From NCBI GenBank assembly GCA_030583805.1, contig CP129476.1, positions 245,453-309,452 of the forward strand: a stretch of 64,000 nucleotides of DNA, read 5' to 3'. Under the pieces are notes generated by a model, which was given only the letters and a program-made list of their open reading frames with translations, made no database searches and was not told the DNA's origin. Shown piece by piece: positions 1-18,764 of the stretch. This stretch comes from Patescibacteria group bacterium. Lineage in GTDB: Bacteria > Patescibacteriota > Patescibacteriia > SG8-24 > DYFX01. Both the position numbers and the translations under genes were made by a program. Every line of letters starts with the position of its first letter. Positions within the stretch are counted from its first letter, which is position 1.

Positions 1-58
1 TTATGGCTGGCATGTTATCCAATCACTCACGTAATGAAAATCGCACAGGGTCATATGC

Positions 59-1310: not shown

Positions 1311-1888
1311 ATGTTGAAGTCTTTCGCGAATTCGGCAGCTTTATTTTTCAGCATCTGAGATCTCATCTCGTCCAGCAATTCCTGAGTAATACGATACTTT
1401 TGCAATAACGGTGCTATGAAACTCTCGAGCTGTCTGTCAGTGGCTCTTATTGTTTCCGCTGAAGAAAGCAGTTCTACTAGCATCTTTTTGCGCCCTTCAG
1501 GAAACATGAAATCTTCGGCTCTTTCCCTAAAGTAGCGATGAGACAACCAGTTTCGAATTTCAAGCGCATTCGTTAAACCAGCTATGAGGTCAGCCGGCAT
1601 CTCGACATATTGTCGGAAAGCTGAGACCATTTGTCCAAGCGTTTTCCGAAATTCGTTGTCATAAAAAGCATCCACCTCCTTTTCCCATTCAGATACCGTG
1701 CTTACTTTCGAACGTCGTTCTGGAATCAGACGCAAGCACACCATTGCGTTTACTAAACCGTGCTCGAGACACTGAGCCGCATAAACAGCGAGGCCGAAGT
1801 AAGCGTAGACCTCTTTCACTTCTTCAGTTTCATCGCACACCGGCTCAGGGTGGGAACCGATCCCCTTGCTTTTCTCTTCCTGAGTCAT
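1307..1888 (-). CDS. hypothetical protein (alpha-helical, no recognisable motif)
   Basis: 193-aa ORF, first gene of the AT-rich operon. A promoter-like AT-rich region lies upstream (1890-1975). Confidence 0.45.
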   Translation of the reverse strand: MTQEEKSKGIGSHPEPVCDETEEVKEVYAYFGLAVYAAQCLEHGLVNAMVCLRLIPERRSKVSTVSEWEKEVDAFYDNEFRKTLGQMVSAFRQYVEMPADLIAGLTNALEIRNWLSHRYFRERAEDFMFPEGRKKMLVELLSSAETIRATDRQLESFIAPLLQKYRITQELLDEMRSQMLKNKAAEFAKDFNI

Positions 1889-1977
1889 AGCATGTGTGTT
1901 ATTTCATGATTTTGCAGAGCATAAATAGTACACGATTATTGGCTTCCTTGCACCAATAAAAAGTATATACTTCCACT

Positions 1978-2955
1978 ATGTCTTTGATTTTAGGTGTCCA
2001 TCTACCGAATCGGCTTTTCTTGGCGGCTGATACTCGGCTGACCGTCATTAAGGACGGCGAGAAGACGTACCGCGACAACTTCTGGAAGGTGGCGGACTTT
2101 GGTCCTCAGATCACTTGCGTCGTTGCCGGCGACGCCTACCTTGCGGGCTTCATTCTCCGTAAGATAGCGGGTTCCGGTATTAAGCACGATAATATCAACC
2201 AATTCCGCCCATGGTTGGAGGCGAACCTGCCTACCTTCATCGATGCCTACCTCGGCGAAGGTGGCACGTACAAGAAAGTCGCCATGATTTTCGGCGGATA
2301 TGACCGCACGGCGAAGAAGAAGTTGAACTCAAGCGCCCTCGGTGACGCCATGAGCAAGCCGTTCGTAGGCAAAGAAGGCGTCGTGATGGATGTTGCGACG
2401 AACCGAATGGTAATCGATGGGTTGATGCGCGAATTTGCCCGCAGGGGCATGGAGCAAATTCCGAAAGACGCTGAATTCGAGATTGATTATCCCGACTCCT
2501 CGGTCTTTGCTGTGGAGATCGAACTGCCAAACGCCCCCGCGTTCCGTACCATTCCCTGTTATGGAGTGGTCCTGTATGCCCAGAAAAATCTGCGTGAGGA
2601 GCACGCGACGATGGACATGGTCCAGAAGCTCGAGACTCAAACCGACACGCGCCAGAAGGGCGAAGACGCAGTGGTCATGTGGTCATTGAATCTCGTCGCC
2701 ATGATAGACGAGATGATTTCCAAATACAGCCTAGATGGCGTGGGCGGCCACAAGTTGACGGTCTTGCTCACTCCAGAGGGGAACGTCATTCCGATGACAA
2801 CTGTCAAAAAAATGAACAAGGAGACAGGAAAAATCGCTACGGTCTCTGATATCTGCGTGCAGGACGACGCGTTCTGCGTTCGTGACGATAATGGCACCGT
2901 TTCACCTTTCGAGCAGGTCATGAACTACGGGCTGCAGGCTGATGCTGAAATTTGA
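1978..2955 (+). CDS. proteasome/HslV-like Ntn-hydrolase family protein (Ser1 variant) with ~120-aa C-terminal extension
   Basis: The N-terminus MSLILGV...LFLAADTRLT...WKVADF...VVAGDAYLAG...MIFGGYD aligns with the proteasome beta/HslV signature (T1TIVG...AADTRAT...K33...GSAAD...AGYD). Ser replaces the Thr1 nucleophile. Asp17 and a Lys at about position 36 are conserved. Confidence 0.5.
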   Translation: MSLILGVHLPNRLFLAADTRLTVIKDGEKTYRDNFWKVADFGPQITCVVAGDAYLAGFILRKIAGSGIKHDNINQFRPWLEANLPTFIDAYLGEGGTYKKVAMIFGGYDRTAKKKLNSSALGDAMSKPFVGKEGVVMDVATNRMVIDGLMREFARRGMEQIPKDAEFEIDYPDSSVFAVEIELPNAPAFRTIPCYGVVLYAQKNLREEHATMDMVQKLETQTDTRQKGEDAVVMWSLNLVAMIDEMISKYSLDGVGGHKLTVLLTPEGNVIPMTTVKKMNKETGKIATVSDICVQDDAFCVRDDNGTVSPFEQVMNYGLQADAEI

Positions 2956-3624
2956 ATGGACCCAATGGAACGGACAACGAGTCGAGAAACCATCATCGAG
3001 TATCTGCCCATCATCAAAAAGATTCAGGCGTCTCTTGAGATTCGTCTATTGAAACACCCGAGCCTTGAAGGATCCGATAAATTGCCGTTCTACGGCCTGT
3101 GGGGCGGACACGATCCCGTACCGGTTATTGAAGCTTGGCAAATTATCGGTGGCTGGGTCGGTGAAAAGGGCGTACGGGTTGAGAACACTTGGCCGTCATT
3201 CCACTTGGTGAAGACCGACAGCGCGACGGATTGGTGGGAGGTGCACAAGCTCATCGCTAAACACATTCGTAAGCAAGATCCAGTCGAAGCCGGTCGGGAA
3301 AAGGCGATACGTCGCGACTCCCCAATCGAAATCGCCCTTACGCTCGAAGGCGATCTTTTCCGTGGAAAGCATAAATACTCACTGAGAGAACCGCGACGCG
3401 TTTCTCTCATTAGGCTGCTCAGTGGGGCTGGCGGCAGCTTCGTTAAAACGAACGAGTTGCAGTTGCTGGTCGGCAACGCGAGTGCAGATGCGCTCCGGGG
3501 GATGATCCACGCTATAAATAGGGGTGCCAGAATCCATCTTGTGATCAAGTACAACGTCATCGAAGGCCGTTCCCGAAGCGGCTACCGAATCAATCCGAAG
3601 TATAAGCTTGGCCGCAAAAAATAG
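2956..3624 (+). CDS. hypothetical protein, translationally coupled to the Ntn-hydrolase-like gene
   Basis: Its start codon directly abuts the upstream stop (TGA-ATG). 222 aa with a basic C-terminus. No recognisable motif. Confidence 0.5.
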   Translation: MDPMERTTSRETIIEYLPIIKKIQASLEIRLLKHPSLEGSDKLPFYGLWGGHDPVPVIEAWQIIGGWVGEKGVRVENTWPSFHLVKTDSATDWWEVHKLIAKHIRKQDPVEAGREKAIRRDSPIEIALTLEGDLFRGKHKYSLREPRRVSLIRLLSGAGGSFVKTNELQLLVGNASADALRGMIHAINRGARIHLVIKYNVIEGRSRSGYRINPKYKLGRKK

Positions 3625-3797
3625 CGCGCACCCTAACGTCACTCACGTGGAGTGAATAACTCCAGAGAAACGGCCTGAATATGGCCGTTTTTCTGTTGTG
3701 CCTCTCCACGTGTGTGGGATGTGAGTGACATTCCGAACGGGGTGGAATGTACGTAGGTCGAGCCGGTACCAGTCCTAATAACCATACCCAAGACCCT

Positions 3798-5075
3798 ATG
3801 CCAGACACCCTCAACTTGCAGGTCGAGTACGTACCCATCGATTCGCTCAAGCCCTGTCCTTGGAACCCACGCAAGTGGGACGAGGCCGCCAAGAGTCAGC
3901 TCCGAGAAAGCCTCGTCCGCTTCGGATTGGTAGACCCGCTCATCGTGAACCAGCATCCCAATCGGTTGAACTTCATCGTCGGCGGCCATTTTAGGCACGC
4001 CATGGCAAAAGAGATCGGAATCGAGAAGGTCCCGGTCGTGTATGTCTCGCTTCCCGAAGACAAGGAGAAAGAGCTTTCGCTCCGTCTCAATAGGAACATC
4101 GGCGGCTGGGACTATGACCTTCTTAAAGAGTTCGACACTTCCCTGCTCCTCGACGTCGGGTTCGATAACCGTGATCTCAGCGCTATTTGGGATGCAGCTC
4201 TCGAAACGTCGGATGACGGATTCGACGTCGAAAAAGAAGCCGCCAAGATCACTGCGCCCAAAACCAAGTTGGGTGACATGTACGCGCTCGGCAAGCATGT
4301 CCTGATCTGCGGCGACTCGAGGGATGAGACCACGATCAAGAAGCTCGTCGGAAGCCAAACGATCGACATGGTCTATTCGGATCCCCCCTTCAACATCGGT
4401 CTGTCATACAACAAAGGCATTTCGACCTCTGGCAAGTACGGAGGCCTCAAGACGGACGACAAGCTCTCGGACAGTGCCTATCGAGAATTCCTCACCAAGA
4501 CCATCAGGAACGCCCTTACGGTCTCAAAACCTGATGCCCATGTCTTCTCCTGGTGCGACGAGAACAGCGTCGGGCTCCTGCAAGACCTCTTTACCGAACT
4601 CGGTCTCCAAAATCGACGGACGTGCCTGTGGATCAAGAACAATTTCAACATGACGCCTGGTGTCGCCTTCAACAAAGCCTATGAGCCCTGCGTCTACGCC
4701 ACGCGCGGAAAGCCGTACCTCGCCCCCGACGTGAAGAATCTGAACGAGGTCATGAACAAGGAAATCGGCGTCGGGAACCGTACGATCGACGATATCTTGG
4801 ATCTCTTCAACATCTGGCTGGCTAAGAGGCTGCCCGGCCGGGACTACGAGCACCCTACGGAAAAACCCCCGACACTCCACGAGAAGGCACTGAGGCGCTG
4901 TACAAAGGTTGGAGACGCGGTTCTCGATCTCTTCTGCGGTTCGGGGTCGACCCTCATGGCCTGCGAGATGATGAAACGCCGATGCTTCACATGCGAGATC
5001 GAGCCCGTATTTTGCGATGTAACGATAAAAAGATATGAACTCCTCACCGGAGACAAGGCCAAGCTTCTCAATTAG
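3798..5075 (+). CDS. ParB-like nuclease domain fused to beta-class N6-adenine/N4-cytosine DNA methyltransferase
   Basis: The N-terminus has the ParB/Srx motif (YVPIDSLKPCPWNPRKWD...IVGGHFRH). This is followed by DPPFN (motif IV) and a C-terminal FCGSGST (motif I), i.e. a permuted beta-class MTase. An alternative upstream ATG exists at 3747. Confidence 0.8.
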   Translation: MPDTLNLQVEYVPIDSLKPCPWNPRKWDEAAKSQLRESLVRFGLVDPLIVNQHPNRLNFIVGGHFRHAMAKEIGIEKVPVVYVSLPEDKEKELSLRLNRNIGGWDYDLLKEFDTSLLLDVGFDNRDLSAIWDAALETSDDGFDVEKEAAKITAPKTKLGDMYALGKHVLICGDSRDETTIKKLVGSQTIDMVYSDPPFNIGLSYNKGISTSGKYGGLKTDDKLSDSAYREFLTKTIRNALTVSKPDAHVFSWCDENSVGLLQDLFTELGLQNRRTCLWIKNNFNMTPGVAFNKAYEPCVYATRGKPYLAPDVKNLNEVMNKEIGVGNRTIDDILDLFNIWLAKRLPGRDYEHPTEKPPTLHEKALRRCTKVGDAVLDLFCGSGSTLMACEMMKRRCFTCEIEPVFCDVTIKRYELLTGDKAKLLN

Positions 5076-5811
5076 TCCCGGCGACATCTATGCACTCGGG
5101 AACCATCGGCTGGCCTGCGGCAGCACGAGCGACCACGACCTGCTCCGTCGGCTTTTCGATAACGACAAGATTGACCTCGTCCTCACGGATCCGCCGTATG
5201 GCGTCGCCTACGTCAGCTCGAAGATCGGCGTAACGGAAGGGATCTCGAAACCGAAGGAAATCATCGGCGACCACGAGCAGAGCGACGCGGAGTACCGTGC
5301 CTTTACGAAGGACTGGCTTCTGTCCGCACGCCCATATCTCGCCAAAAAGAATGCGACCTATATCTTCAACTCCGACAAGATGATCTTTGCCCTTCGCGAA
5401 GGCATGCTTGAGGCCGGATTCAAATTCGCCCAACTGCTCATTTGGGTGAAAGACCATGCTGTGCTCGGACGGATGGACTACCTGCCCCAGCACGAACTCA
5501 TCGCCTACGGCTGGTTCGGAACGCATGCGTTCCGGCGTTCGAAGGCTAAGAGCATTCTCGCTTTTCCGAAGCCGGGAAAAAGCCCGCACCACCCCACCCA
5601 GAAGCCAATAGGCTTGCTTCGCGAACTCATCTTGAACAGTTCGAAGCCGAACGACGTGGTCTTCGACGGATTCATGGGCGGCGGCTCGACGCTGCTCGCG
5701 TGCGAGCAGACGAAGCGTCGATGCTTCGGCGTCGAGATCGACGCGGAGCACTGTCTCACGGTTATCCGCAGATGGGAGGCGCTGACCGGACAGAAGGCCG
5801 TGAAGACGTGA
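5035..5811 (+). CDS. beta-class DNA methyltransferase (N4-C/N6-A)
   Basis: DPPYG motif IV, HPTQKP and C-terminal FDGFMGGGST motif I. It overlaps the upstream MTase by 41 bp. Confidence 0.8.
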   Translation: MNSSPETRPSFSISPGDIYALGNHRLACGSTSDHDLLRRLFDNDKIDLVLTDPPYGVAYVSSKIGVTEGISKPKEIIGDHEQSDAEYRAFTKDWLLSARPYLAKKNATYIFNSDKMIFALREGMLEAGFKFAQLLIWVKDHAVLGRMDYLPQHELIAYGWFGTHAFRRSKAKSILAFPKPGKSPHHPTQKPIGLLRELILNSSKPNDVVFDGFMGGGSTLLACEQTKRRCFGVEIDAEHCLTVIRRWEALTGQKAVKT

Positions 5812-5812
5812 T

Positions 5813-6364
5813 ATGAAATCAGGCGCCACAGCATCACCAGCACGGGCGACTCCGGCCGAAAGGCCGGAGCGTCTTAAGGCTCGGCATGCGAAGAAGCTCA
5901 TGCTGGAGATGCTGCGGAAGTACCCGATCATCGAGGCAGCCTGCTCGAAAGCCGGCATTTCCCGTTCGACGCATTATGAGTGGATGAAGAAGGATGCGCG
6001 GTACTCGGCCGATGTCGAACAAGCCACGAGAGCGAGCATCGACACCGTGACCGACATTGCGGAGAGCAATATCATCGAGGGTATCAAGAAGGGAGATTAT
6101 AAATGCTCGGCATTCTGGCTCATCCATCGCCATATGGCCTACAAGAAAAGGAACGATTTGGAAGACACCAAGACAGAGAAACTCCTGATCAAGCCGCCGC
6201 CGAGCGAACGGTTTATCGCTGCGGTCAGAAAATACGATCCTGATTACAATCCTCCCAAAGGGGTGCAATACATCACGCGGGAGGAATGGGAACGCGAACG
6301 ACGGAACGCTGAAGTTTTTTCACGTTTATACGAAGAAAGGCTTCGTCTTGAATCGAGCAAGTAG
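5813..6364 (+). CDS. HTH-domain protein, phage terminase small-subunit-like
   Basis: Has the AACSKAGISRSTHYEWMKKDARYSADVEQA helix-turn-helix typical of phage TerS/homeodomain-like proteins. It starts 2 nt after the MTase stop. Confidence 0.4.
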   Translation: MKSGATASPARATPAERPERLKARHAKKLMLEMLRKYPIIEAACSKAGISRSTHYEWMKKDARYSADVEQATRASIDTVTDIAESNIIEGIKKGDYKCSAFWLIHRHMAYKKRNDLEDTKTEKLLIKPPPSERFIAAVRKYDPDYNPPKGVQYITREEWERERRNAEVFSRLYEERLRLESSK

Positions 6365-6415: not shown

Positions 6416-7450
6416 TCAGTGCCGGATGCCTCCTCCGTCTCGCCAGCAGTCGCCGACCACGTTCCAGTTGTTCAGGTTGAACCAACTGGTCTGGCCCGAC
6501 GACGACCCGTAGAGGAAGAAGTTCATGTTCTGTACCGAGTTGCTCAGGATGAGGCTGTAGCTCGTGACCGAACTCGACCACGTTGCCTTGGGCTTGCCTG
6601 AAGTGTAGGCGCCCCATCCGTCGGTATCCGATCCGTATTCGAGATAGACCGGACTGCCGCTCGGTACGGAGCCGAAGATGCCGTACGGGATGTTGCCCGT
6701 GATCGTCACCGTCATGTCCGGGCCGTTCTCGACGCAGTTGATGGTACCGTTCGGAGGTGCAGCATGCGTGATGACGCCGCCGTTCTTCCAGCAGGCTCCG
6801 CCGACCGTCCAGGCATCGCCGTCGTAGTCGGCGTCCGTCAGGTCGAACCACTTGCCCGTGCTTCCGTCCGTCAGGTACAGGTTGAAGTTGTAGACGTTCG
6901 GAGGGAGAAAGAGCGTGTGGTTGTTCGTGCCGTTCCAGTTCGTGAAGGCCTTGCCCGAGCTGTAGGGAACGCTCCACCCATCCGTGTCCGATCCGTAGAG
7001 GATCTTGGTCGGATTCGTGACGGAGCCGTTCACGAGCATGCTCTGGATCGGCCCGTTCACGTAGACGGAGAGGCCGTTCGAATCGAGCGTACAGCTGATG
7101 TCGCCGGTCGACGGCGGCGGTACGAGGTGGCGAATGCCGCCTCCGTCGCGCCAGCAGTCGCCGGTCACCGTCCAGTCGTTGAGGTCGAACCATCCCTGTT
7201 GCCCGCTCGTCGGGTTGTACAGGAAGAAGTTCATGTTCTGGACGGACGGGTTGAGTGCGAGGGTGTAGACCCTCGGAATCCCTGTCGAAACCCAGTCGCC
7301 GACCCACTCCGCCTTGGGCTTGCCTGAGGTGTAGGCGCCCCATCCGTCGGTATCCGATCCGTATTCCAACAAGGTGCCGGATGCGGTGACCTGGGTGAAG
7401 ACGCCTTCCTGCACGGGACCGGTGATGGACACGTCCAGCGCGGCACCGCT
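6416..7450. repeat. intragenic tandem repeats (~330 bp units, outer copies near-identical)
   Basis: DNA segments around 6596-6650 and 7324-7380 are almost identical (ggcgccccatccgtcggtatccgatccgtattc). They match the protein repeats in the M23 peptidase C-terminus. Confidence 0.6.
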
Positions 7451-8917
7451 CACGCGGCAGTCGATCGTCATGGAAGTGACGCCGCCGCCTTGTCCGCCTG
7501 GATGGCACTCGTTGGACTTGGCGTAGTTGAACGGAACGCTGTTGTTGAGCGGCGCGCCCGACAAGGCCGCGACGGTGCCGTCGGGGATCTGGATGACGTT
7601 CCTGTAGCCTCGGTACGTCCCGTAGACGAGCTGGACGTACTTTCCGAACCCGGCGACCCACTCTTCACGGTTGAGCCGCTGGTAGCGGGTGACCGGCGTC
7701 GATGTCGCGTCGTTGCCAGTGATCGTATCCGCGGTCACGAGCCAGAAGTCGTTGTCACTGGCTTCCTCCACGACCGTACCCACGCGCAGTCCCAGGTTCG
7801 GGCCGGAAGGCATCGTGTTGCATTCCTCGGCCGTGCCCACCTGCAATTCATTGGACTTGAAGCCCCATGACTTGATCAGCGGCTGGTACCGCGCATCCGC
7901 TTGGGTGAAGGGAATCCTGCGCCTGAGAGAAGATGTACCGCTCTTGAACGTGACATAGAACTCAACGGTGACACCTGGGTTGCAAACGACGAGTCTTGTT
8001 GTTTGCTGAGAGGAGATGTCCGGCCCTTGCGCGTAGCAACCGAGCACGTCCGAAGGCACCTCGACGACTTGCGCCGTGGGACTCGACGAATCCTGCCAGA
8101 GCCTGCGCCCGACGAACGCGTTCCAGTCGGTGATGTGACACACCGTGGACTCGCTACAGACGAGGTAGATCTCCGGATGGCCGATCTGCTTGACGAGCGT
8201 GCCGACCGGGAAATGCGTCGCGCCGTTCCCGCCGATCGTCACCCAATGCGACGACTGCGAGAGCGGCATGTCGATATCCAAGAAATGGGTGTAACCGCCC
8301 ATCGGTTCGGGTTTGACGGGCTCGAAGACGTTCGGATCGGATACGGTCGGGCAGTGGAGGGCGAAGTGGATGTGCGGGCCGGTGACATTGCCCGTCGATC
8401 CTTCGTATCCCAGCAGCTGGCCCTTCTGGACGACCTGTCCGTGAACAACCGAGCGGCTGTTCAGGTGGCCGTAGTGCGAGAGACACCCGTTGGAGTGTCT
8501 CACATGCACGTGTCTGCCCCAGCCCGAGTTCCAGTCGTCGCCGCCGCTCCAGGCACGGATCTCGACCGTGCCGGCCGCGACGGCCAAGACGCGCGTGTTG
8601 TTGCCCGAGACGCCGATGCCCGCGAAGTCGATCGCGTACTGGTCATCGCCCAGGCCGCTCCACGAGCTGCCGTGATCGGAGTGGCTGAAGCACTGTGCGC
8701 CCTGCGGCGTGAGGTTGTTCGGGCAGTACGTCTGAGCCACGACGTGCGGCTGGGTCAGATCGAAGGGCAAGCCCAGATCCAATCCGACGTCCGCAGCCGT
8801 GCGCGGTGGGCCCACGATGGGCAGCTCCACGGCACCGGTGTCTTCCGGATCCTCCGCGTAGCAACCGACCAAGATCAACAGCAGGAACTGCACGCACAAT
8901 AGGAGCCTCGTTCGCAT
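6416..8917 (-). CDS. secreted M23-family metallopeptidase lipoprotein with three C-terminal ~100-aa repeats
   Basis: Signal peptide plus lipobox (LILVGCYAE). M23 motifs (HxxxD-like HSDHGSSW, GSTGNVTGPHIHFALH). Three repeats of YGSDTDGWGAYTSGKPKA...NMNFFLY...WFDLNDW...GDCWRDGGGIRH. Confidence 0.85.
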   Translation of the reverse strand: MRTRLLLCVQFLLLILVGCYAEDPEDTGAVELPIVGPPRTAADVGLDLGLPFDLTQPHVVAQTYCPNNLTPQGAQCFSHSDHGSSWSGLGDDQYAIDFAGIGVSGNNTRVLAVAAGTVEIRAWSGGDDWNSGWGRHVHVRHSNGCLSHYGHLNSRSVVHGQVVQKGQLLGYEGSTGNVTGPHIHFALHCPTVSDPNVFEPVKPEPMGGYTHFLDIDMPLSQSSHWVTIGGNGATHFPVGTLVKQIGHPEIYLVCSESTVCHITDWNAFVGRRLWQDSSSPTAQVVEVPSDVLGCYAQGPDISSQQTTRLVVCNPGVTVEFYVTFKSGTSSLRRRIPFTQADARYQPLIKSWGFKSNELQVGTAEECNTMPSGPNLGLRVGTVVEEASDNDFWLVTADTITGNDATSTPVTRYQRLNREEWVAGFGKYVQLVYGTYRGYRNVIQIPDGTVAALSGAPLNNSVPFNYAKSNECHPGGQGGGVTSMTIDCRVSGAALDVSITGPVQEGVFTQVTASGTLLEYGSDTDGWGAYTSGKPKAEWVGDWVSTGIPRVYTLALNPSVQNMNFFLYNPTSGQQGWFDLNDWTVTGDCWRDGGGIRHLVPPPSTGDISCTLDSNGLSVYVNGPIQSMLVNGSVTNPTKILYGSDTDGWSVPYSSGKAFTNWNGTNNHTLFLPPNVYNFNLYLTDGSTGKWFDLTDADYDGDAWTVGGACWKNGGVITHAAPPNGTINCVENGPDMTVTITGNIPYGIFGSVPSGSPVYLEYGSDTDGWGAYTSGKPKATWSSSVTSYSLILSNSVQNMNFFLYGSSSGQTSWFNLNNWNVVGDCWRDGGGIRH

Positions 8918-9768: not shown

Positions 9769-10578
9769 TCACTTATTTCCGTAGTTGTTAATCGCATGGG
9801 AGAGCACGGCCCCAATAATATCCCGGTTTCCAGGGACTTTAAATTTTAGGAGGCGTGGTCTCGACTTATTGTTCTCAGAAAAGCGAATGCCGTCTGAATA
9901 AAAGTTCAAGTCCAGTATATTTTCAAGCTTGGAGGCAAAAGATTTCTTTTCCCCTCTGAAGATAGCGCGCCTGCTTGTCAGGATCAGCTCACCCTCACAG
10001 ACATCGACCAATCCGGTTTCGCTTTCGATATGGCCTCGATGTCCGCCGATTCGGAAACTCACTCCCTTCATAACTCTTAGGCTTATACCTTGAGATCCGC
10101 CTTGGTATCTCCTGCGGATCACCTTTTCCTCAACCAGAATGACTGGCTCAGCCCAATAGACTTTTTCGCTCTTAAGCGTAATGAGGTTCATAACCGGGCG
10201 AATCACCGGCATATTCCCCTGCCTGATCTCGTTCAAAAGACGAAGTCGCGCGAGCTCTTTCTTATCGTTATGGATTTCACCGTCACTCAAGCCAAGAAGC
10301 TTCTGAATGGCGTGCAACTCGCTCTCTTCCTCTTTAGTCACCTCATTATCTGATTTTGCAGCTGCAAACGCAGTTGTATAAGCCTCAGCTTTCAAACCTC
10401 TGAAGTCTCCGTCTGTGAGTCCAAACTCGGCTTTCAACTTGTCGAGTTCGGACATTTCTTCGAGAGAAATACTTCCATCAGCCGCCGCTTTTAGAAAAGC
10501 TTTTCTAAAAAACTGTTTATTCAGGCTTTTCTGCTTAGCAGCTTTGTACTTATCTACGAGCGTTTGAAATATACCCAT
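9769..10578 (-). CDS. hypothetical protein (TerB-like acidic repeat N-terminus, bacterial PH-like C-terminus)
   Basis: 269-aa ORF that is clearly more AT-rich than its neighbours. It has repeated SxEExxEL...GLxDG motifs, then a beta-rich C-terminal region. Confidence 0.45.
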   Translation of the reverse strand: MGIFQTLVDKYKAAKQKSLNKQFFRKAFLKAAADGSISLEEMSELDKLKAEFGLTDGDFRGLKAEAYTTAFAAAKSDNEVTKEEESELHAIQKLLGLSDGEIHNDKKELARLRLLNEIRQGNMPVIRPVMNLITLKSEKVYWAEPVILVEEKVIRRRYQGGSQGISLRVMKGVSFRIGGHRGHIESETGLVDVCEGELILTSRRAIFRGEKKSFASKLENILDLNFYSDGIRFSENNKSRPRLLKFKVPGNRDIIGAVLSHAINNYGNK

Positions 10579-10944: not shown

Positions 10945-11535
10945 TCACTGACACGTCGTGGTCGGCCAGCCGTTGTTCTGGTTCACCCAGTAGCTGGAGC
11001 CGCCGCAGGCGCCGCCATAGAAGTCGATGCGACTCCCGATGTTGACGTTCTGCCAGAGCTCGAAATGCATGTGCGGACCGGTCGAGTAACCGGAGTTACC
11101 CGACTGGCCGACAGAACCGCCGCACAAGATGCTCTGCGGCCAGACGACCGTCCCGTTCTTCAAGTGCGCGTAGATGCTCACCTTGCCGTCAGACGGATGA
11201 GAGATCCGGACGTGGTTGCCGTAACTGCCGCCGCAGGTCTGGTCAGCGCCGCTGTCAGAGCATCCATCGAGCCTGTAGTACAGGGAACCGGAAGCTCCTG
11301 CGAGCACCGTTGTGCCCATGCTGGATGCGAAGTCCGTACCGTTGTGTCCATCGTAGTAGTAGCCCGTCCCGCAATCGTACCGAGTCATTGCTCCGCTGGC
11401 CGAGTTGTGGTCGTACCAGGAGATGTAGCCCGGATTCGAGCTGAACGGGAGGCGGAACAGCGTTCCGGCGTGAGCTGCGTGAGCCACGAACAGAACCGTG
11501 ATGCAGAGGATCGAAAGGGTGAGATACTTTTTCAT
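10945..11535 (-). CDS. secreted M23-family peptidase
   Basis: Signal peptide (LSILCITVLFVAHAAHA). YDGHNGTD (HxxxD) and GPHMHFELW (HxH) zinc-binding motifs. Confidence 0.8.
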   Translation of the reverse strand: MKKYLTLSILCITVLFVAHAAHAGTLFRLPFSSNPGYISWYDHNSASGAMTRYDCGTGYYYDGHNGTDFASSMGTTVLAGASGSLYYRLDGCSDSGADQTCGGSYGNHVRISHPSDGKVSIYAHLKNGTVVWPQSILCGGSVGQSGNSGYSTGPHMHFELWQNVNIGSRIDFYGGACGGSSYWVNQNNGWPTTTCQ

Positions 11536-11566
11536 TTATCCTTCTCTCTTTCTTGGGTGTGCGGGT

Positions 11567-12373
11567 TCAGCGAACGTTGATGGTGTGCCGGACATCCTTG
11601 CCGTCGACAAGAGTGCGGACAGAGATGCTCTTGTCCGGCACGACCCATTGAGGCGCGTCGCCTTCGGCGATCCGGGTGGCAGAAGCGGAGCTGTCAGTCA
11701 GCGCGAACTTCCAAACTCCGGTCTCGTGGCCGTAGGAAGTGAACACCGTCACTCTGTCGGACGACCACAAAGCCGTAGTGGGGCTGATGGTCGGGATCAT
11801 GCGGCCGTTCCGAACCGCTTCCTCGTCGACATTGGTGAGACGCTTGGTCTCACCTGTCTTGAGATTGACCACCCAGAGAGATGCCACGCGGTTTCCTGAA
11901 GAGTCGTCGTACGGCCGCGTGGAGTTGAAGTAGAGCATGCTCAGGTCGCGAGAGAATCCGACGGGAGCGAAATCATCGCTTCCGCCGTTGGTGACAAGAT
12001 ACTCCCGCCCCGTTTGCAGATCATGGACGGCGATGCCCAGTGCGAACTCGAACAAGCTCTGCTCGGCGCCATCTGCCGAACCATCAGCCAGCTTCTCGTA
12101 TGCGACGAAACGTCCGTCGTGGGAGAAGATGGGCGCGGCGCCATGAACCCCGATCTTCTGCAGAACGGATCCGTTGGGATCGACCAACAGAACCTCGTGG
12201 TTCTTGGTCCAAACCGCCTCCAACGCTCCGTCCGGCGATTGGCTCGCCGTGATCACATCATCGGCAAGCGTGGGTTCCGGAATGGGTGCCGACGTCGTCT
12301 CCAGGGAACAGCCTGCAGAAAATGCCAGAAACACTGTTGCAATCAGACTCACAGCCGTAATACCGATTCTCAT
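11567..12373 (-). CDS. lipoprotein with TolB-like beta-propeller repeats
   Basis: Start taken at MRIGITAV. Lipobox AFSAGCS. Repeated DG/SxDG... beta-propeller-like segments. Confidence 0.55.
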   Translation of the reverse strand: MRIGITAVSLIATVFLAFSAGCSLETTSAPIPEPTLADDVITASQSPDGALEAVWTKNHEVLLVDPNGSVLQKIGVHGAAPIFSHDGRFVAYEKLADGSADGAEQSLFEFALGIAVHDLQTGREYLVTNGGSDDFAPVGFSRDLSMLYFNSTRPYDDSSGNRVASLWVVNLKTGETKRLTNVDEEAVRNGRMIPTISPTTALWSSDRVTVFTSYGHETGVWKFALTDSSASATRIAEGDAPQWVVPDKSISVRTLVDGKDVRHTINVR

Positions 12374-12522
12374 GTATCCTCTCAATCTTTGTTGCCAACG
12401 AACGCGTTGCGCGCCCAACCATTGGACGCGCAACGAACGGCAACCTAGCATTGCCATGCTTTTAGTGTCAAGCGGGCATCTTATTGCTAATTAGGCGAGT
12501 AATCTGTCATAATAAAGGGCAT

Positions 12523-13062
12523 ATGGTAACAAAGAAGGTGAGAACCGTTGGATTGGTTGCGGTTGTGTTGATTGCAGTAATGGCAGCCCTCGTGCTTTTG
12601 AAGACGAAATACGCCCCTTCAGGAGAGATTGCGGTGAACGTGCCTGCCGGATGGTATTTGCATCACACAAAGTCCGGGGGCATCATTTTCACTCGCCAAG
12701 AGAACCTGCCCGATATTGGAGCTACGGAAGGATTCGCCTACGGCGAGCAAATCACCATGGCGGAACTGGTGTTGGACAAGTCCATGGAAGAATGGATCGC
12801 TTCGCGGTTTCCCGAAAATGATCCGCTCTATACCCTGAAGGAGCGCGGTACTCTGAGCGGTCATCCGACACTCAGAGTCGAGCATGAAGCGGGAGCTTCT
12901 GGAAAGGTGCTGGACTACTACCTGTTTTCCGGTGATCGCGCTTACGTTTTTTCGCTCTATCCTCTCGAATCATACGACGCTGCCAGCAAGATCACGGTTC
13001 GCAATACTACGAATGTGTTAGTGCTTGAACAGATTGTGAGTGACTACGCGACAAAATTGTAG
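12523..13062 (+). CDS. hypothetical membrane-anchored protein
   Basis: One N-terminal TM helix (VGLVAVVLIAVMAALVLL). The start is preceded by AAGGGC. Confidence 0.45.
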   Translation: MVTKKVRTVGLVAVVLIAVMAALVLLKTKYAPSGEIAVNVPAGWYLHHTKSGGIIFTRQENLPDIGATEGFAYGEQITMAELVLDKSMEEWIASRFPENDPLYTLKERGTLSGHPTLRVEHEAGASGKVLDYYLFSGDRAYVFSLYPLESYDAASKITVRNTTNVLVLEQIVSDYATKL

Positions 13063-13252: not shown

Positions 13253-14554
13253 ATGGACCCTTCTACCAATGATGCACCCGTCCGATACTGCCTGTACGCC
13301 CGCAAGTCGAGCGAACAAGACGAGCGACAGGCGCTATCCATCGATGCGCAGGCCAAGGAGGTGCGCCAGATCGCGGAGCGGGACGGATTGGAGATCGTCA
13401 TCGAGCGGCATGAGAGTCACTCCGCCAAGGACTCCGGCCAGCGACCGGAATACGCCGCGATGCTCGAGGATCTACGGGCAGGTGCGTGTAACGGCATCCT
13501 GACCTGGGCACCGGACCGTCTGAGCCGTAACGGCGGCGACCTGGGACAGCTTGTCGATCTTATCGATCGTGGCAAGCTCATCGAGATCAGGACGCCGAGC
13601 CAACGCTTCACGAATCTGCCAGGCGACAAGTTCCTCCTGATGATTCTCTGCTCGCAAGCGAAGCTGGAAAACGACAACAAGAGCGTGAACGTAAAGCGTG
13701 GCCTCCGTGCCAAGGTCGAGATGGGTTATCGGCCCAACATGTCCCCTCTTGGCTATCTCCACGACAAGTACGCTCCCAAGGGCGAGCGGCGGGTGTATCT
13801 CGATCCGGAGCGGGCACCTGTAATAAAAGAAGCCTTTGAGAATGTGGCCGAACTTGGCTGGAGCGGACGCGATCTCAAGGAATGGTTCGACAATGAAAAG
13901 CGCTTCAAGACGCGAACCGGAAGGCAGATCACGCTCAGCATGATCTACCGGATGATGAGCAACCCCTATTACACAGGCCGGTTCGAGTTCCCAAGTGGCA
14001 GCGGAAAGTGGTTCCAAGGGAAGTATGAGCCGCTCGTCACCCAGACGATCTTCGACAAGGTGCAGGAGACGATGAAGGGCGTACCCCATGCTCCATATGG
14101 AGCCAAGGAATTCGCCTTCACGCGCTTGATGAAGTGCGGCGAGTGCGGAAGCGGCATCAGTGCCGAGGAGAAGTTCAAGCGCCTAAACAACGGCACGGTC
14201 GCCCGTTATGTCTACTACGGATGTAAGGGGCGGTGGATGAAACAGTGCAAGCAGCTCTATATTCGCGAGGAGAACCTTACTGATCAGCTTTGCAAGATGA
14301 TTGACGAAGTTGAGATCGACAAGATTGCCGCCTCACAAGCAGTGCGCACTGAGATTGAGAAGATGAAAAAGGTGGCGATAATGATCGGCGGGTCTGCCAT
14401 CGTCGACCAACTCACGACCGCCGCAGAGAAGTTCGACGTGCGGGCCTATGGAAAGCACGTCCTCAAGGAGGGTACGCGAGAGGAAAAACGTGATTTGCTC
14501 GACAAGCTGAAGTCGAATTTCGTCTTAAAAGATGGGCGGGTGCTCCTAGGATAA
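13253..14554 (+). CDS. large serine recombinase (serine integrase/resolvase family)
   Basis: Resolvase catalytic N-terminus (YARKSSEQD...LSIDAQ, DRLSRN). Recombinase domain and zinc-ribbon (CGECGSG...YYGCKG) plus a coiled-coil C-terminus. Confidence 0.85.
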   Translation: MDPSTNDAPVRYCLYARKSSEQDERQALSIDAQAKEVRQIAERDGLEIVIERHESHSAKDSGQRPEYAAMLEDLRAGACNGILTWAPDRLSRNGGDLGQLVDLIDRGKLIEIRTPSQRFTNLPGDKFLLMILCSQAKLENDNKSVNVKRGLRAKVEMGYRPNMSPLGYLHDKYAPKGERRVYLDPERAPVIKEAFENVAELGWSGRDLKEWFDNEKRFKTRTGRQITLSMIYRMMSNPYYTGRFEFPSGSGKWFQGKYEPLVTQTIFDKVQETMKGVPHAPYGAKEFAFTRLMKCGECGSGISAEEKFKRLNNGTVARYVYYGCKGRWMKQCKQLYIREENLTDQLCKMIDEVEIDKIAASQAVRTEIEKMKKVAIMIGGSAIVDQLTTAAEKFDVRAYGKHVLKEGTREEKRDLLDKLKSNFVLKDGRVLLG

Positions 14555-14590: not shown

Positions 14591-16528
14591 CTAAGACAAA
14601 GCGACGACGTTTTCGGCTCCAAACCATTCCTTTGCCTTCGCAATTACTCCAACTGACGGAGCGTGGAAAAAGACCGCGAGTTGCTCCTTTGAGCGCGTAC
14701 AGCACACATAGAATATTTTCCGTGTTCGCTCTAAGACGCTCGGAGTTCCAGATTCCAGAAAAAGGTTCTCGAAATTATATTCGTTCCATTTCCCGTTGTC
14801 TAAAATGGTGAATACATAATCGAACTCGGCACCCTTGATCTTGTGTTGTGTGGAGAACGGCGTTTTCCCCTCCAAATAATCGTATAATTTTTGAAATTCG
14901 CTGAACCTAACCGCCTTCACTCGATCATACAAGTACTCGTTTTCAATCTTGAAACGAGTAATACTATCGTCGAGCAGGCAGACGCCCTTTTCGTCAGCCA
15001 GACGGACGATCTCTTCGACGGTCTTCTCGCCGACGCTCGTTAGTTCGGTAATGCTGCCTTGTAAATTTAACTTATCTTCAACACTAGAAATACGGAAGTC
15101 AGTAACTCTGAGAAACTCATTGTATTGCTTGTTCTGATAGAGTGAAATATTGTTTTGGATTTTGAAGAGGTGCCTTATCAGGTTGTCCCTTTTTGAACTC
15201 TTTTTATTCTCGTCGCCCTCATCCTGTTTCTTGTCATCTAACAGCTGATCCTTATCGACATAGACTTTTCTAAAATCGGAAAAAAGATATCTGCGAGCTT
15301 TCTCATACAGTTCGGGGTTTGCAGCAAGGAATTTCCCAATCACGGTAGTCGGTTTAATCTGCAGATTCACTAGGTCGACTACCTCGCCAAAAGTCAGGGT
15401 TTCCGCAACCGCGATATTTTTCTCCTTTATTTCCTTCACTATCTTGCCCTTCAATTCTAAAATTCTTTCTTTATCGTATATATCCATCAGAGTCCTAAAT
15501 CCCGCCTTGTCCGCTATCAAGTTGTGCGTTAAATTCAACTCTTTAGTCTCCTTGGAATCAGAAAAATCCCAGGCGAAGTTGGTTGAAAGATAATCCCGCA
15601 CTCGATTTAGGTCTGGGTCGTCCGAGTAGATAAATTTCACTACGCCCACTTTTACATTTCCGCCAGTCAACATGTTCGGTGCGGTGACGTCCGCCGATGG
15701 CGTTTGCACCAAGCCGTCGGTTCGTAGTCTGTTGGCTAGATCGATTATTGTCTTCGGGTTCCTTCTGTTCTGCTCTTTCTTGATCTCCTTAACCTTATCG
15801 GCGGCGTCACCTTTGTATGCGTCCAAATTTCCGATACCCCCGTCATAGATCGATTGCATCGCGTCTCCAAAAAAGCCGATAACATTTTTCTTGGCACTTT
15901 TCTTGAAATGATCGAGAAAGATACCGATCACGGCCTTGTCAGTGTCCTGATACTCATCGATGAAGATGAATTTGAACTTGTCTTTTACTATGTCACAAAG
16001 CTTAGGATATTTTTCAAACAAGTAATTTGCCACGATGAGCAATTCATCGTGTGAAATAATGCCCTTGCTCAGTTTCAGGTACTCCTTGTACTGAATTCCT
16101 TCTTCACAACTATCAAAAAATCCTTCCGGGACGGGATTGGGCTCATCGACCCGTATTTTTTCCACCAGGTCATCATTGGCCAGAGCAATCAAGGCCAATT
16201 TCAGTTCCTTCTGAAAATGCTTAATGTTATCCCATAAGAAATCGTGGATCGTGGACACGCTGAGATTCTTATGCCCAACTCGGTCGCTGATTTCTTTGAC
16301 CGCAGCATTGGTGAAGGTCATGCATGCAATTTTGGCTGTCGGGTTTTCCGCGATGGACTGCCTGATAGTTTGCACCAAAGAATACGTTTTACCGCTTCCT
16401 GCTCCACCACTGAGAAGGAAATTGCGCCCGGAGTCTATGCACCGGAAGATCTCCTGCACTTCAGGCTCCAGCGTCAATCTTGCTTCAGCCATAGCAGCCC
16501 TTCTTTTATGTATGACGGTATTTGCCAA
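14591..16528 (-). CDS. gajB: UvrD/PcrA-like SF1 helicase (GajB-like)
   Basis: Walker A GGAGSGKTY, motif II FIDEYQDTD, Q-motif and C-terminal helicase motifs. AT-rich. It overlaps the upstream OLD gene. Confidence 0.75.
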   Translation of the reverse strand: MANTVIHKRRAAMAEARLTLEPEVQEIFRCIDSGRNFLLSGGAGSGKTYSLVQTIRQSIAENPTAKIACMTFTNAAVKEISDRVGHKNLSVSTIHDFLWDNIKHFQKELKLALIALANDDLVEKIRVDEPNPVPEGFFDSCEEGIQYKEYLKLSKGIISHDELLIVANYLFEKYPKLCDIVKDKFKFIFIDEYQDTDKAVIGIFLDHFKKSAKKNVIGFFGDAMQSIYDGGIGNLDAYKGDAADKVKEIKKEQNRRNPKTIIDLANRLRTDGLVQTPSADVTAPNMLTGGNVKVGVVKFIYSDDPDLNRVRDYLSTNFAWDFSDSKETKELNLTHNLIADKAGFRTLMDIYDKERILELKGKIVKEIKEKNIAVAETLTFGEVVDLVNLQIKPTTVIGKFLAANPELYEKARRYLFSDFRKVYVDKDQLLDDKKQDEGDENKKSSKRDNLIRHLFKIQNNISLYQNKQYNEFLRVTDFRISSVEDKLNLQGSITELTSVGEKTVEEIVRLADEKGVCLLDDSITRFKIENEYLYDRVKAVRFSEFQKLYDYLEGKTPFSTQHKIKGAEFDYVFTILDNGKWNEYNFENLFLESGTPSVLERTRKIFYVCCTRSKEQLAVFFHAPSVGVIAKAKEWFGAENVVALS

Positions 16529-18576
16529 TTATCGAGTTTCTCGCTGCTGTGAAACAGGATGTCTAATGCAAAGTGCGTCTTTTTCTTTATGCAGTTATCG
16601 GCGAGCGCGTACGCATCTTTGGTAGCATCGTCGAAGTCCTTCTTGTTTTGGAGTCCCTTAAAACTCGCTTTATTGGTCGACACGAAAGCACGATTCAGGT
16701 GGATGAAACTGTCTTCGAAACTCCGGGCGTTGTACCCATTTTCCTCAATTTGGTAAACGACACAGATGTCGCCATTGGGATCCTGAGTCCACGTGTTTGA
16801 TGCCTTTTTAAATTTCTTGCCTGATATCGTAAGGCTCTTCAAAGTTCCCAACGTGGCCGTGCCAAAGAAAAACCTGAGGGCGTCGTTTGAGTAATCGGTA
16901 CCGGCGGCGACCCTGCAAGCCCTGCCGTCCGCACCGATGGAGTCCAAGTCCGTGACGATCAGCGACTTGATTCCAAGGAAATCAATAAATTTCTCGAAAA
17001 TTTGTGAGTACGCGCCGACTTCTATTACGGAGATGTTCTGTGACAACAGAGGGGGGTGAGGGTCTACAGTCTTGGCTGCCATATGTTTTTCAGACTCCTC
17101 GATGTCAACTTTCTTCATGATCGTCGGTACCAAAATCCGCTCGGTGTCGCCCTCGATCAAAACTGCCTTCTCTGCAAAAAACACCTCGGCCCTGCTGATC
17201 GTGAGATACTGTTTCAAAAATTGGTACTGGACCGCTTCGGACGCATATTCTTCTTGCAGATCCTTAAGATTTTTTGCGGCGACGCCATTGGCACCATCTT
17301 TTTTGAGGTATTTGATGTCGTCAAAATCACTATCCGCGACGATGTGCGAGGAGTGTGTGCTGATGATGTATTGCAATTTTCGATCCTCCCCATCCTTTCT
17401 CTTGATACCTTCCTTGAGTAGATCCTTGATGTTCTTGATGAACACGTACTGCATTTGGGGGTGCGTGTGTGCCTCCGGTTCCTCGATAAAAAGCAGGTTG
17501 ATGTCTGCGGGCCTCGACTCCCTTTCTTTCTTGAACTCCTGCAAAAGGATCTCAATCTCAAAGATCATGCTGATCAGGTTCATATAGCCCAGACCGTTGT
17601 AGTGCTCAGGGAGCAGATTGTCCGTGTCATGCCTGTATACGACGGTGGTATTACCTTCAAGCAATCTCTGGTGCTGTAACGTAGAGATAATCTCAATCTC
17701 TGATTCGGAAATTTTGATTCCTCCGAATTTTTTTACTTTCTCTATCGCGCCGCCGAACAGGGTTTTATACACCTCGCTCAAGCTTACATCGGCCTCGCTT
17801 AATTTGCCCTTGAAAACCTCGATGACCTCGTTCTGATCGTCGCTTATCTCTGTCCTGTCGTAAATCTTGGAGGTTTGGGCAGACAGTGTTTTATCTGAGT
17901 CGCTATTAGTGACCTCCCTTTTGGCACTAACGTATTTAAAATTGATTATGTCCTTGATGTTTATTTTTTCCTTGATGAGGTCAATGAAATTTGCCTCGTT
18001 CTCCAGTTTGGTAGTCTTATCAAACCCTATGGTCTTTTTGTTGATTTTAAAATAAATGTGATGGTTTAATTTTAGGAAATCGTATACACGCTTCGGCTGA
18101 TATTTCGCGTCTTTAGCCTTCTTTGCCTCCTCATCCTTTTTAAACACCGCATACTCTCCTTTGACCTTAGTGTAGTCACCAAAGTTTAAGGTGTAATCAA
18201 AGCCGAGGACCACCACATTATTCGCGGGATCCAGATCCATCATCACCCGTTCGACGTTGGACAAATTATCGCCAGCTCCGTACTCGATGAAAATTTTTAG
18301 TTTTATACCCAAGCCGTGGAATTTACTGAAATCGTCTTCCGATAGGTCGTTCGCATCCTCAATCAGAGTCTTTAGTTCCTTTTTGAAGTCGGTATTGAAA
18401 TCGTCAAAAGAAAACCTATGCTTCTCGGACTGGTTGAGGAACTTATCGAGAATGGTCAGTATCGATGTCTTTCCGGTGTTATTCTTTCCGATCACCAGCG
18501 AAAGCTCATCCTCCAGGTCTATGGAGATTTTTTTAAGAAGCCGATAGTTTTCGATCTGTATTTTGAATATTTTCAT
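16474..18576 (-). CDS. gajA: OLD-family ATPase/Toprim endonuclease (class 2 OLD, GajA-like)
   Basis: N-terminal ABC-type ATPase (GKNNTGKTS Walker A; LLFIEEPEAHTHPQMQ Walker B/H-loop). C-terminal Toprim (VLIEGDTERIL, IVTDLDS). Located immediately upstream of a UvrD-like helicase. Confidence 0.8.
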   Translation of the reverse strand: MKIFKIQIENYRLLKKISIDLEDELSLVIGKNNTGKTSILTILDKFLNQSEKHRFSFDDFNTDFKKELKTLIEDANDLSEDDFSKFHGLGIKLKIFIEYGAGDNLSNVERVMMDLDPANNVVVLGFDYTLNFGDYTKVKGEYAVFKKDEEAKKAKDAKYQPKRVYDFLKLNHHIYFKINKKTIGFDKTTKLENEANFIDLIKEKINIKDIINFKYVSAKREVTNSDSDKTLSAQTSKIYDRTEISDDQNEVIEVFKGKLSEADVSLSEVYKTLFGGAIEKVKKFGGIKISESEIEIISTLQHQRLLEGNTTVVYRHDTDNLLPEHYNGLGYMNLISMIFEIEILLQEFKKERESRPADINLLFIEEPEAHTHPQMQYVFIKNIKDLLKEGIKRKDGEDRKLQYIISTHSSHIVADSDFDDIKYLKKDGANGVAAKNLKDLQEEYASEAVQYQFLKQYLTISRAEVFFAEKAVLIEGDTERILVPTIMKKVDIEESEKHMAAKTVDPHPPLLSQNISVIEVGAYSQIFEKFIDFLGIKSLIVTDLDSIGADGRACRVAAGTDYSNDALRFFFGTATLGTLKSLTISGKKFKKASNTWTQDPNGDICVVYQIEENGYNARSFEDSFIHLNRAFVSTNKASFKGLQNKKDFDDATKDAYALADNCIKKKTHFALDILFHSSEKLDNWQIPSYIKEGLLWLKQD

Positions 18577-18697
18577 TGCTTCTCGTCGAGGTTCTTCGGA
18601 TTGATCTTTTGATTTGTGAGCGTTACTTTATCTCATCCATGTCATTTAGTAAATCGGCGCATTTTTGGTATACGAGATGACCAAAGATGCCAAGATC

Positions 18698-18730
18698 ACA
18701 AAAGCCAGCCATTTTCATGGCTGGCTTTTG
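18698..18730 (-). terminator. rho-independent terminator downstream of tRNA-Asn
   Basis: Perfect hairpin AAAGCCAGCCAT-tttc-ATGGCTGGCTTT, followed on the minus strand by a T-run. Confidence 0.5.
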
Positions 18731-18764
18731 ACCAAGCACGTGGGTCGCCCCACACGCTTGCTCA

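Follow-up and report, generated by a model that had tools for sequence, protein, structure and literature searches.

A predicted proteasome-type N-terminal-nucleophile hydrolase from an island-bearing region of a Patescibacteria genome

Results

The locus and its predicted product

The DNA analysed here, called the window throughout, is a stretch of 64,000 nucleotides (positions 245,453 to 309,452) of the 1.17-Mb contig CP129476.1, which belongs to a metagenome-assembled genome (MAG) of Patescibacteria, that is, of the Candidate Phyla Radiation (CPR). The subject of this study is an open reading frame near the start of the window, ORF A, whose product is predicted to be a hydrolase with an N-terminal nucleophile (Ntn) and a fold like that of the proteasome beta subunit. 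At NCBI, ORF A (QY323_01375) and the ORF that follows it, ORF B (QY323_01380), are both labelled 'hypothetical protein'. An earlier note on this DNA had read ORF A as a proteasome/HslV-like Ntn hydrolase with a serine directly after the initiator methionine, and profile comparisons, structure prediction and residue conservation bear this out. The gene and the codons of its predicted active site are as follows.

1978..2955, + strand: ORF A, 325 amino acids (aa), predicted proteasome-beta-like Ser1 Ntn hydrolase
1981..1983, + strand: codon of Ser2, the predicted nucleophile (Ser1 after loss of Met1), which aligns on the mature Thr1 of yeast beta2
2029..2037, + strand: codons of Asp18-Thr19-Arg20, corresponding to proteasome Asp17-x-Arg19, with AADTR aligned with AADTR of yeast beta2
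2086..2088, + strand: codon of Lys37, corresponding to proteasome Lys33 by alignment
2125..2136, + strand: codons of Ala50-Gly51-Asp52-Ala53, with Gly51 corresponding to the oxyanion-hole Gly47 and the segment falling on I-A-G47-L in the alignment to Thermoplasma beta

When the sequence of ORF A is used alone, the proteasome profile PF00227 is matched in register, with residues 4-117 on profile positions 7-121 (E=0.01, 15.9 bits, cut-off 22.4). Nothing matched in NCBIfam, PADLOC, PHROGs or, with phmmer, the PDB; DUF2121 was absent from the Pfam matches of ORF A, and no family of PADLOC-DB v2 matched ORF A or ORF B at E<=1. The search of the flanks of ORF A returned no RNA family and no meaningful repeats, and no sigma-70-like promoter was detected at the gene.

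Size, conservation and hosts of the family

Word-indexed protein searches retrieved only 6-9 relatives of ORF A (5 in the first search), so that the extent of the family was reached only with an exhaustive profile search, in which a hidden Markov model (HMM) built from the alignment of those few relatives was compared with 1.84 billion cluster representatives. The family comprises 208 clusters (at 50% identity) at E<=1e-3, 153 of them at E<=1e-10. Nearly all members are 310-360 aa long, and the profile matches begin at residue 1 and extend to ~320 in most of them. An N-terminal extension was never seen, and the proteins lack a propeptide: among 154 unselected representatives, 78 begin with MT and 55 with MS, followed by [LVIM][IV]xG.

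Conservation was analysed in an alignment of 118 selected members with a mean column identity of 18%, termed A2. Position 2 is threonine in 73 and serine in 45 of these sequences and thus T or S in 118/118, and the only invariant columns are D18 and K37 (118/118 each). Gly51 is retained in 115, Arg20 in 112 and Ala50 in 109 of the 118 sequences; M1, G6, R20, D33, A50, G51, G107 and G256 are each conserved at >=90%. Serine and threonine replace each other at position 2 even inside sub-clades, one of which holds 18 members with serine and 18 with threonine. Therefore, the serine nucleophile of ORF A is an ordinary polymorphism of the family. The remark in the earlier note that Thr1 is replaced by Ser is correct for ORF A itself, yet it does not describe a special feature of this protein, and Ser/Thr interchange at the nucleophile has been noted for proteasome-like proteins in general (Fuchs et al., PMC8665760).

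All members with a named organism come from Patescibacteria, namely the MAG of the window, a Woesebacteria genome (OGM09943.1, UniRef A0A1F7X4Y4), a Nealsonbacteria genome (MBI2042717.1) and a further Patescibacteria genome (MFA5127246.1).

Homology to proteasome beta subunits and predicted fold

At the level of the family, the relationship to proteasomes becomes clear. The A2 profile matches mature yeast beta2 in the PDB with E=1.3e-7, and in this match position 2 falls on Thr1, DTR on D17-T-R19, K37 on Lys33 and AG51 on Gly47; the numbering offset of 3-4 residues between Lys37 and Lys33 is due to a short insertion in the S2-S3 region. Searched singly, 52 of the 118 sequences in A2 match PF00227 at E<=0.01, the best of them at 1.1e-9. 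An hhalign comparison of the family with the Thermoplasma beta subunit, the sequence of which was verified to be 100% identical to 3c91_H, gave E=2.5e-5 across residues 3-112.

AlphaFold2 with a deep alignment yielded a model with a predicted local distance difference test score (pLDDT) of 94.6 and a predicted template-modelling score (pTM) of 0.92. An earlier run on 6 sequences, with a pLDDT of 48.8, was discarded and was not used for the fold search. In a Foldseek search of the PDB with the model, the top matches were all 20S beta subunits (E=5e-7, probability 1.00, target-normalised template-modelling score 0.6-0.7), and the nearest structural relatives are 20S beta, Anbu, BPH and HslV. ORF A is thus predicted to have the alpha-beta-beta-alpha fold of proteasome-type Ntn hydrolases, with strands S1-S10 and helices H1-H4. 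Both a significant profile match to the proteasome superfamily and a predicted Ntn sandwich, on which the earlier note had made its reading depend, were found. Counterparts of the nucleophile (Thr/Ser at mature position 1), Asp17, Lys33 and Gly47 are all present and in register, and membership of ORF A in the proteasome-beta/HslV superfamily (MEROPS T1) is strongly supported by fold and catalytic residues.

A probable mid-fold insertion in the predicted structure

The sequence similarity of ORF A to proteasomes stops at residue ~112, and the rest of the protein was therefore placed by structure. The Foldseek alignments comprise 270-290 columns on targets of only 173-220 aa and thus run ~80 columns beyond the target length (278-289 columns versus ~198-aa beta subunits, and ~270 columns versus HslV-like phage proteins of 173-180 aa). 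Because the spans exceed the targets, the alignments must reach query residue ~270-285 with a gap of ~80 residues. In addition, the C-terminal half carries conserved motifs in A2 that have look-alikes in Thermoplasma beta. The segment W194-G-E..Y200-G201-P, with W194/G195 and Y200/G201 conserved, resembles S8 (E-D-I-Y) and Gly128, P211..L218-E219 resembles H3 (P132..L138-E139), and [TS]254-[VI]255-G256-G257 with the hydrophobic strand that follows resembles Ser169-Gly170-Gly171 and S9. A sub-profile of residues 188-292 gave nothing significant in the PDB or with hhalign against Thermoplasma beta, so that the mapping of the second half rests on structure.

Taken together, the alignment spans and the conserved motifs at 194-265 indicate that the fold extends to ~280 and is interrupted by an insertion at 118-193. 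ORF A is therefore probably one proteasome fold with a mid-fold insertion and a short C-terminal beta extension, whereas the earlier note had proposed a domain of ~120 aa appended at the C-terminus. The predicted layout is listed below.

Residues 4-51 (S1-S5), 53-65 (H1), 73-93 (H2) and 100-117 (S6/S7): first Ntn half in the AlphaFold2 model
2329..2556, + strand: residues 118-193, insertion of ~75 aa between S7 and S8 (two helices and a beta hairpin in the AlphaFold2 secondary structure; boundaries inferred)
2557..2817, + strand: residues 194-280, predicted second Ntn half, placed by motif resemblance, with S8 (196-200), H3 (212-219), H4 (229-250) and S9/S10 (259-279)
2818..2952, + strand: residues 281-325, C-terminal beta extension in the AlphaFold2 model, with strands 286-295, 298-302 and 308-310 and a disordered end of 3 residues

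ORF B belongs to a separate methyltransferase module

The genes downstream of ORF A are the following; MTase denotes methyltransferase and HTH helix-turn-helix, and L001 to L043 are the loci that were compared with the window.

2956..3624, + strand: ORF B, 222 aa from ATG 2956, or 219 aa from the second in-frame ATG 2965, which is the start used at NCBI
3747-5075, + strand: ParB_N+N6_N4 MTase (domain match)
5035-5811, + strand: second N6_N4 MTase, overlapping the ParB-MTase gene by 41 nucleotides (nt)
5813-6364, + strand: TerS-like HTH protein, last gene of the module
2965..6364, + strand: four-gene module, not part of the Ntn unit, found also at L007 9245-12648 and L008 10001-11749

The earlier note had described ORF A and ORF B as a translationally coupled two-gene cassette of a protease and its partner, and had suggested that the conservation of the pair be checked. 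The stop and start codons do abut (TGA|ATG at 2953-2958), and the two genes lie on the same strand with similar GC content. Nevertheless, both the NCBI annotation and the DNA homology start at ATG 2965. ORF B has a single homologue among 5.8 billion proteins, of 61% identity and, like the NCBI form, 219 aa in length, and it matched nothing in four HMM libraries and the PDB; an impression that it ends in a winged helix found no support from any tool. This homologue lies directly upstream of the same set of genes, a ParB-MTase (442 aa), an MTase (258 aa) and a 184-aa gene; the gene that precedes it (292 aa) has the reverse orientation, and the maps of L007 and L008 contain no Ntn gene. At the level of DNA, one colinear blastn block of 3389 bp with 82.6% identity joins window 2965-6343 to L007 9245-12624, and it starts exactly at ATG 2965, 9 nt past the stop codon of ORF A. 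In L007, an extended -10-like box (TGTATAAT) lies ~14 nt upstream of the ATG of the ORF B homologue, a place taken in the window by the 3' end of ORF A.

No homologue of ORF B was found in the other family loci, that is, the contigs of homologues L001-L006, the genome contigs L009-L010, L011, the 28 metagenome loci L012-L039 and L040-L043; homologues of ORF A and of ORF B occur apart. The counterparts of the module lie in contigs of unrelated samples (SRR11088367 and GCA_020049755.1). Because the homologue and the DNA block share the MTase trio in a setting that has no Ntn gene, ORF B is not a partner of ORF A; it is the first gene of a separately conserved MTase/TerS-like module that is unrelated to ORF A, which merely abuts it. 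A coupled protease-plus-partner cassette is thus very improbable.

An apparent genomic island in the window

The first ~19 kb of the window are compositionally mosaic, with a GC content of 0.41-0.64 compared with about 0.60 elsewhere, and this region ends at a tRNA gene. Four of its features are listed here.

13253-14554, + strand: large serine recombinase
14591-16528, - strand: UvrD-type helicase, overlapping the OLD gene by 55 nt
16474-18576, - strand: OLD-family AAA_15+TOPRIM protein
18765-18839, - strand: tRNA-Asn

The OLD and UvrD genes form a Gabija-like pair in a low-GC block (0.41-0.49) right beside tRNA-Asn, with the serine recombinase on the other side, and window 14591-18839 has the appearance of an island that has integrated at a tRNA gene. 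The mobile or defence-type neighbourhood that the earlier note had assumed was thus confirmed by the mosaic composition and by these genes.

An AT-rich block of three genes (59-1888, - strand, GC 0.41-0.46) is divergent from ORF A; its products of 259 aa and 193 aa match phrog_19960 (2.5e-19) and phrog_12893 (5.5e-11), and its 149-aa product has a weak DUF4760 match and an N-terminal hydrophobic segment. Two genes encode M23 peptidases (6416-8917 and 10945-11535, both on the - strand), and a TerB-like protein (9769-10578) is encoded between them. The larger M23 protein (833 aa) contains internal repeats of ~120 aa with a recurring GSDTDGWGAYTSGKPKA segment, which include the direct repeat D1 at 6610/6970, and its gene lies in a high-GC stretch with long spurious ORFs on the opposite strand.

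Neighbours across the family loci

Comparison of adjacent genes with BLASTP and phmmer across about 36 family loci revealed no conserved neighbour of any kind. Often a gene of like orientation lies a short distance upstream, and by the same comparisons these genes are mutually unrelated. Only two types of neighbour were seen repeatedly: HTH proteins of the XRE type, in 5 loci, and large serine recombinases with Resolvase, Recombinase and Zn-ribbon domains. Among the 21 non-redundant loci that are >=7 kb long and together make up 256 kb, a local HMM search detected such a recombinase in the fetched flanks of 9.

In addition, 145 neighbour proteins from 32 loci were scanned in batch with Pfam and PADLOC. 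No AAA+, HslU, ATP-grasp or transglutaminase family was among the 25 Pfam families listed, each unlisted family occurring at most once; the earlier note was therefore right in stating that the usual partners (HslU for HslV, ATP-grasp and transglutaminase for Anbu) are missing. The families found include restriction-modification (R-M) methyltransferases, ResIII helicases, reverse transcriptase (RT) systems, integrases/transposases and the YoeB toxin. As observed in these loci, the family sits in variable islands that often bear serine recombinases.

Several loci have individual features. In Candidatus Nealsonbacteria (JACOYH010000008.1; L040 6126-9403, + strand), three genes follow one another head-to-tail with gaps of 52 and 15 nt, the first encoding an OLD-family nuclease of 607 aa, the second the Ntn family member of 314 aa and the third a protein of 147 aa; they are adjoined by a TnsA-like gene and the two genes of a type III R-M system. 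Together with the OLD gene in the island of the window, this hints at a loose association with OLD proteins, which are adjacent in one locus only. In locus L001, the family gene is closely followed by an RT fused to an Mrr-type endonuclease domain (11307-12875, + strand), and the locus also encodes a serine recombinase and a tyrosine integrase. The PADLOC family 'RT-Protease_XI' was matched by 2 of the 145 neighbours at about 1e-130. Locus L041 is prophage-like, with Rep_O, an amidase and a serine recombinase. In L020, a different proteasome homologue of 563 aa (1403-3094, - strand) is convergent with the family gene at a distance of 38 nt; it starts with MTVVV, has DSR, K, GSGS and GG motifs, matches PF00227 with E=1.6e-6 and carries a C-terminal extension of ~350 aa with a weak DUF6941 match, so that two distinct proteasome-like genes stand side by side. 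In L043 (1086-3062) and one other locus, the family gene adjoins smpB; the tmRNA/smpB region is a classic integration site of islands.

Discussion

Comparison with known proteasome-type systems

To our knowledge, only five proteasome-type families have been characterised, namely the 20S proteasome, HslV, Anbu, BPH and Connectase. The active site predicted for ORF A is that of a proteasome beta subunit or HslV, yet the protein differs from all five. In contrast to 20S beta subunits (PF00227, MEROPS T1A), it lacks a propeptide, an alpha subunit and the 28-mer context, it adds the ~75-aa S7/S8 insertion and the C-terminal beta extension, this member has Ser in place of Thr, and the gene is bacterial (CPR), accessory and island-borne. 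Compared with the HslV (ClpQ) subunit of ~175 aa, ORF A is about 150 residues longer, and HslV is a weaker match than 20S beta; no HslU/AAA+ gene was found in the window neighbourhood or among the recurrent neighbours in the 32 loci.

Anbu has operon partners (ATP-grasp, transglutaminase-like and alpha-E proteins) that are not among the neighbours of ORF A, and it ends in a long C-terminal helix, H5, whereas the C-terminus of ORF A is predicted to be beta-stranded. Both Anbu and BPH also differ from ORF A in length and insertions, and their hosts are mostly Proteobacteria and others rather than CPR bacteria. Connectase (DUF2121; PMC7980362) is an archaeal proteasome-like protein ligase that works alone and uses a Thr1 or Ser1 nucleophile. 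It resembles ORF A in having an insertion, which in Connectase covers the active site and gives sequence specificity, and in its beta-rich C-terminal extension. However, Connectase is devoid of H1/H2 and has a two-helix lid between S3 and S4, whereas the model of ORF A has H1 (53-65) and H2 (73-93) and no helical S3/S4 insertion. Moreover, Connectase occurs in methanogens and acts on MtrA, in contrast to a family hosted by CPR bacteria.

The closest parallels are found among the 22 uncharacterised proteasome-like subfamilies that were catalogued by Fuchs, Alva and Lupas in 2021 (PMC8665760), including PMI-1..6, PHI, WPH, RPC and DAH. They keep Thr1/Ser1, Asp17, Lys33 and Gly47, have no propeptide and no detectable partner or context, and several carry insertions or extra domains; like the family of ORF A, they are divergent orphan prokaryotic homologues of the proteasome with insertions. 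The view of the earlier note that nothing of this kind had been described was thus overstated. In that survey, an association with mobile elements was reported for PPH and AAH only, and no later characterisation of any of the orphan subfamilies was found in the literature. The family of ORF A may coincide with one of these subfamilies. Judging from accession prefixes, the PMI-3 representative OGZ26396.1 would stem from the 2016 release of groundwater CPR data to which OGM09943.1 belongs. On the other hand, the insertion sites listed in the survey (N-terminus, S3/S4, after H1/H2, H3/H4 and C-terminus), compared by description only, exclude S7/S8, and the family may be new because its main insertion site is not among them.

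Proposed activity

We think it likely that ORF A is an active, propeptide-less peptidase or amidase that is selective, independent of partners and of ATP, and carried as single-gene cargo by mobile elements of CPR bacteria, rather than an enzyme of bulk degradation. The template for its predicted mechanism is the Thr1/Asp17/Lys33 triad of the proteasome (Huber et al. 2016, as cited in PMC8665760). Methionine aminopeptidase would strip Met1 and thereby expose Ser1. This removal is what the known specificity of methionine aminopeptidase predicts. The hydroxyl of Ser1 would be activated by its own alpha-amino group together with Lys37, with Asp18 orienting and polarising Lys37. Ser1 would then attack a peptide or amide carbonyl, the backbone NH of Gly51 would stabilise the oxyanion, and the acyl-enzyme might be resolved by water or, as in Connectase, by an amine.

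The insertion and the C-terminal beta extension are predicted to pack on the core (as the pTM suggests) and probably gate substrate access or alter oligomerisation. In 20S particles, the S7/S8 loop forms part of the cis-ring interface and borders on the adjacent subunit and its substrate channel. Given an insertion in this ring-interface loop, restriction of the substrate or changed oligomerisation would be its most likely effects.

Alternative explanations

The most serious competitor, though unlikely, is a self-compartmentalising ring protease, whose subunits would form double rings, hexameric or heptameric, in the manner of HslV, BPH or Anbu and degrade unfolded proteins with no ATPase of their own, the insertion acting as a cap or gate. 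The closest structural relatives all form rings, H1-H4 are all present, unlike in the monomeric Connectase, and BPH likewise has no unfoldase partner (PMC5777263). However, a structured insertion of this size would sit where subunits meet, near the substrate channel of the neighbour, and Fuchs et al. (PMC8665760) have argued that comparable insertions would clash in rings.

It is also conceivable, though again we do not favour it, that CPR mobile elements carry ORF A as a one-gene effector of anti-phage defence or of counter-defence that cleaves a host or phage protein upon infection. The Gabija-like pair, the serine recombinase and tRNA-Asn within 17 kb in the window point in this direction, as do the OLD nuclease directly upstream and the nearby type III R-M genes in L040, the RT-Mrr gene downstream in L001, the R-M, RT and toxin-antitoxin families among the neighbours, the frequency of serine recombinases in the long loci and the high variability of the immediate neighbours. 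Against it stand the lack of any PADLOC match, the qualitative nature of an association that has no proper background control, the housekeeping genes that flank some loci, and the lack of a sensor domain or a regulated partner.

Somewhat more doubtful is a proposal that combines several of these elements, in which the family would be an uncatalogued, CPR-restricted branch whose insertion and beta extension form a lid over Ser/Thr1. The protein would then be a monomeric, sequence-specific protease or transpeptidase, Connectase-like in action but independently evolved, and spread by serine-recombinase elements as a single-gene defence or counter-defence module.

Two further explanations can be dealt with briefly. 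A role as a prohead or scaffold protease in phage or prophage maturation would fit the nearby ParB-MTase, TerS-like and PHROG-matching genes, the prophage-like locus L041 and the fact that phages do carry proteasome homologues such as PPH and AAH, but it is scarcely credible, as neither a tblastn search of 50,697 phage genomes nor two scans of 2.9 M viral contigs with patterns from sub-clade alignments returned a relative, capsid, portal or large-terminase genes are adjacent in no locus, and the viral structural matches in BFVD are core-sized phage proteasome homologues only (TMq <=0.48). That ORF A has no catalytic activity and retains the proteasome fold in a structural or regulatory role, as alpha or inactive beta subunits do, could account for the difficulty of assigning its accessory active-site residues and for a replaced glycine in the clade of the window protein, but it is highly unlikely, since the (near-)invariance of the nucleophile, Asp18, Lys37 and Gly51 among members that share only 18-25% identity would be unexpected without catalysis, and the N-terminus is never extended.

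Several points weigh against the preferred interpretation of ORF A as an active, selective peptidase or amidase on mobile elements. The window protein by itself scores under the Pfam gathering threshold of PF00227. The mapping as an insertion instead of an appended domain stands on alignment spans and motif resemblance, with a non-significant C-terminal sub-profile, and for the same reason the counterparts of Ser129, Asp166 and Ser169 have no confident assignment beyond resembling motifs. Furthermore, the otherwise common Gly201 is Ala in the clade of the window protein. As to the genomic context, the control for the serine recombinases is small, comprising the other 44 kb of the window, in which 0 were found, and housekeeping genes, among them those for H+-PPase, SmpB and trigger factor, lie next to the family gene in several loci. 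Finally, no paper was found that characterises a family member or that ties proteasome homologues to CPR bacteria or to defence.

Implications

With these points considered, the locus defines a coherent and well-modelled family of some 208 clusters, in which the catalytic set is intact, an unusual mid-fold insertion is present and partners are missing. The family belongs to the mobile gene pool of Patescibacteria, organisms about whose protein turnover and conflict systems little is known. As judged from sequence and model, the family appears to be a catalytically intact, CPR-associated and island-borne orphan branch of the proteasome superfamily with a distinctive insertion architecture, and it may be a PMI-type orphan that has already been catalogued. 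Should the latter be the case, the island and serine-recombinase context would still be an addition to the 2021 survey. If, however, the insertion gives sequence specificity, the family might represent a new specific protease or ligase and would offer the first functional clue to the orphan proteasome homologues; there is a precedent in Connectase, which proved to be a protein ligase of biotechnological use.

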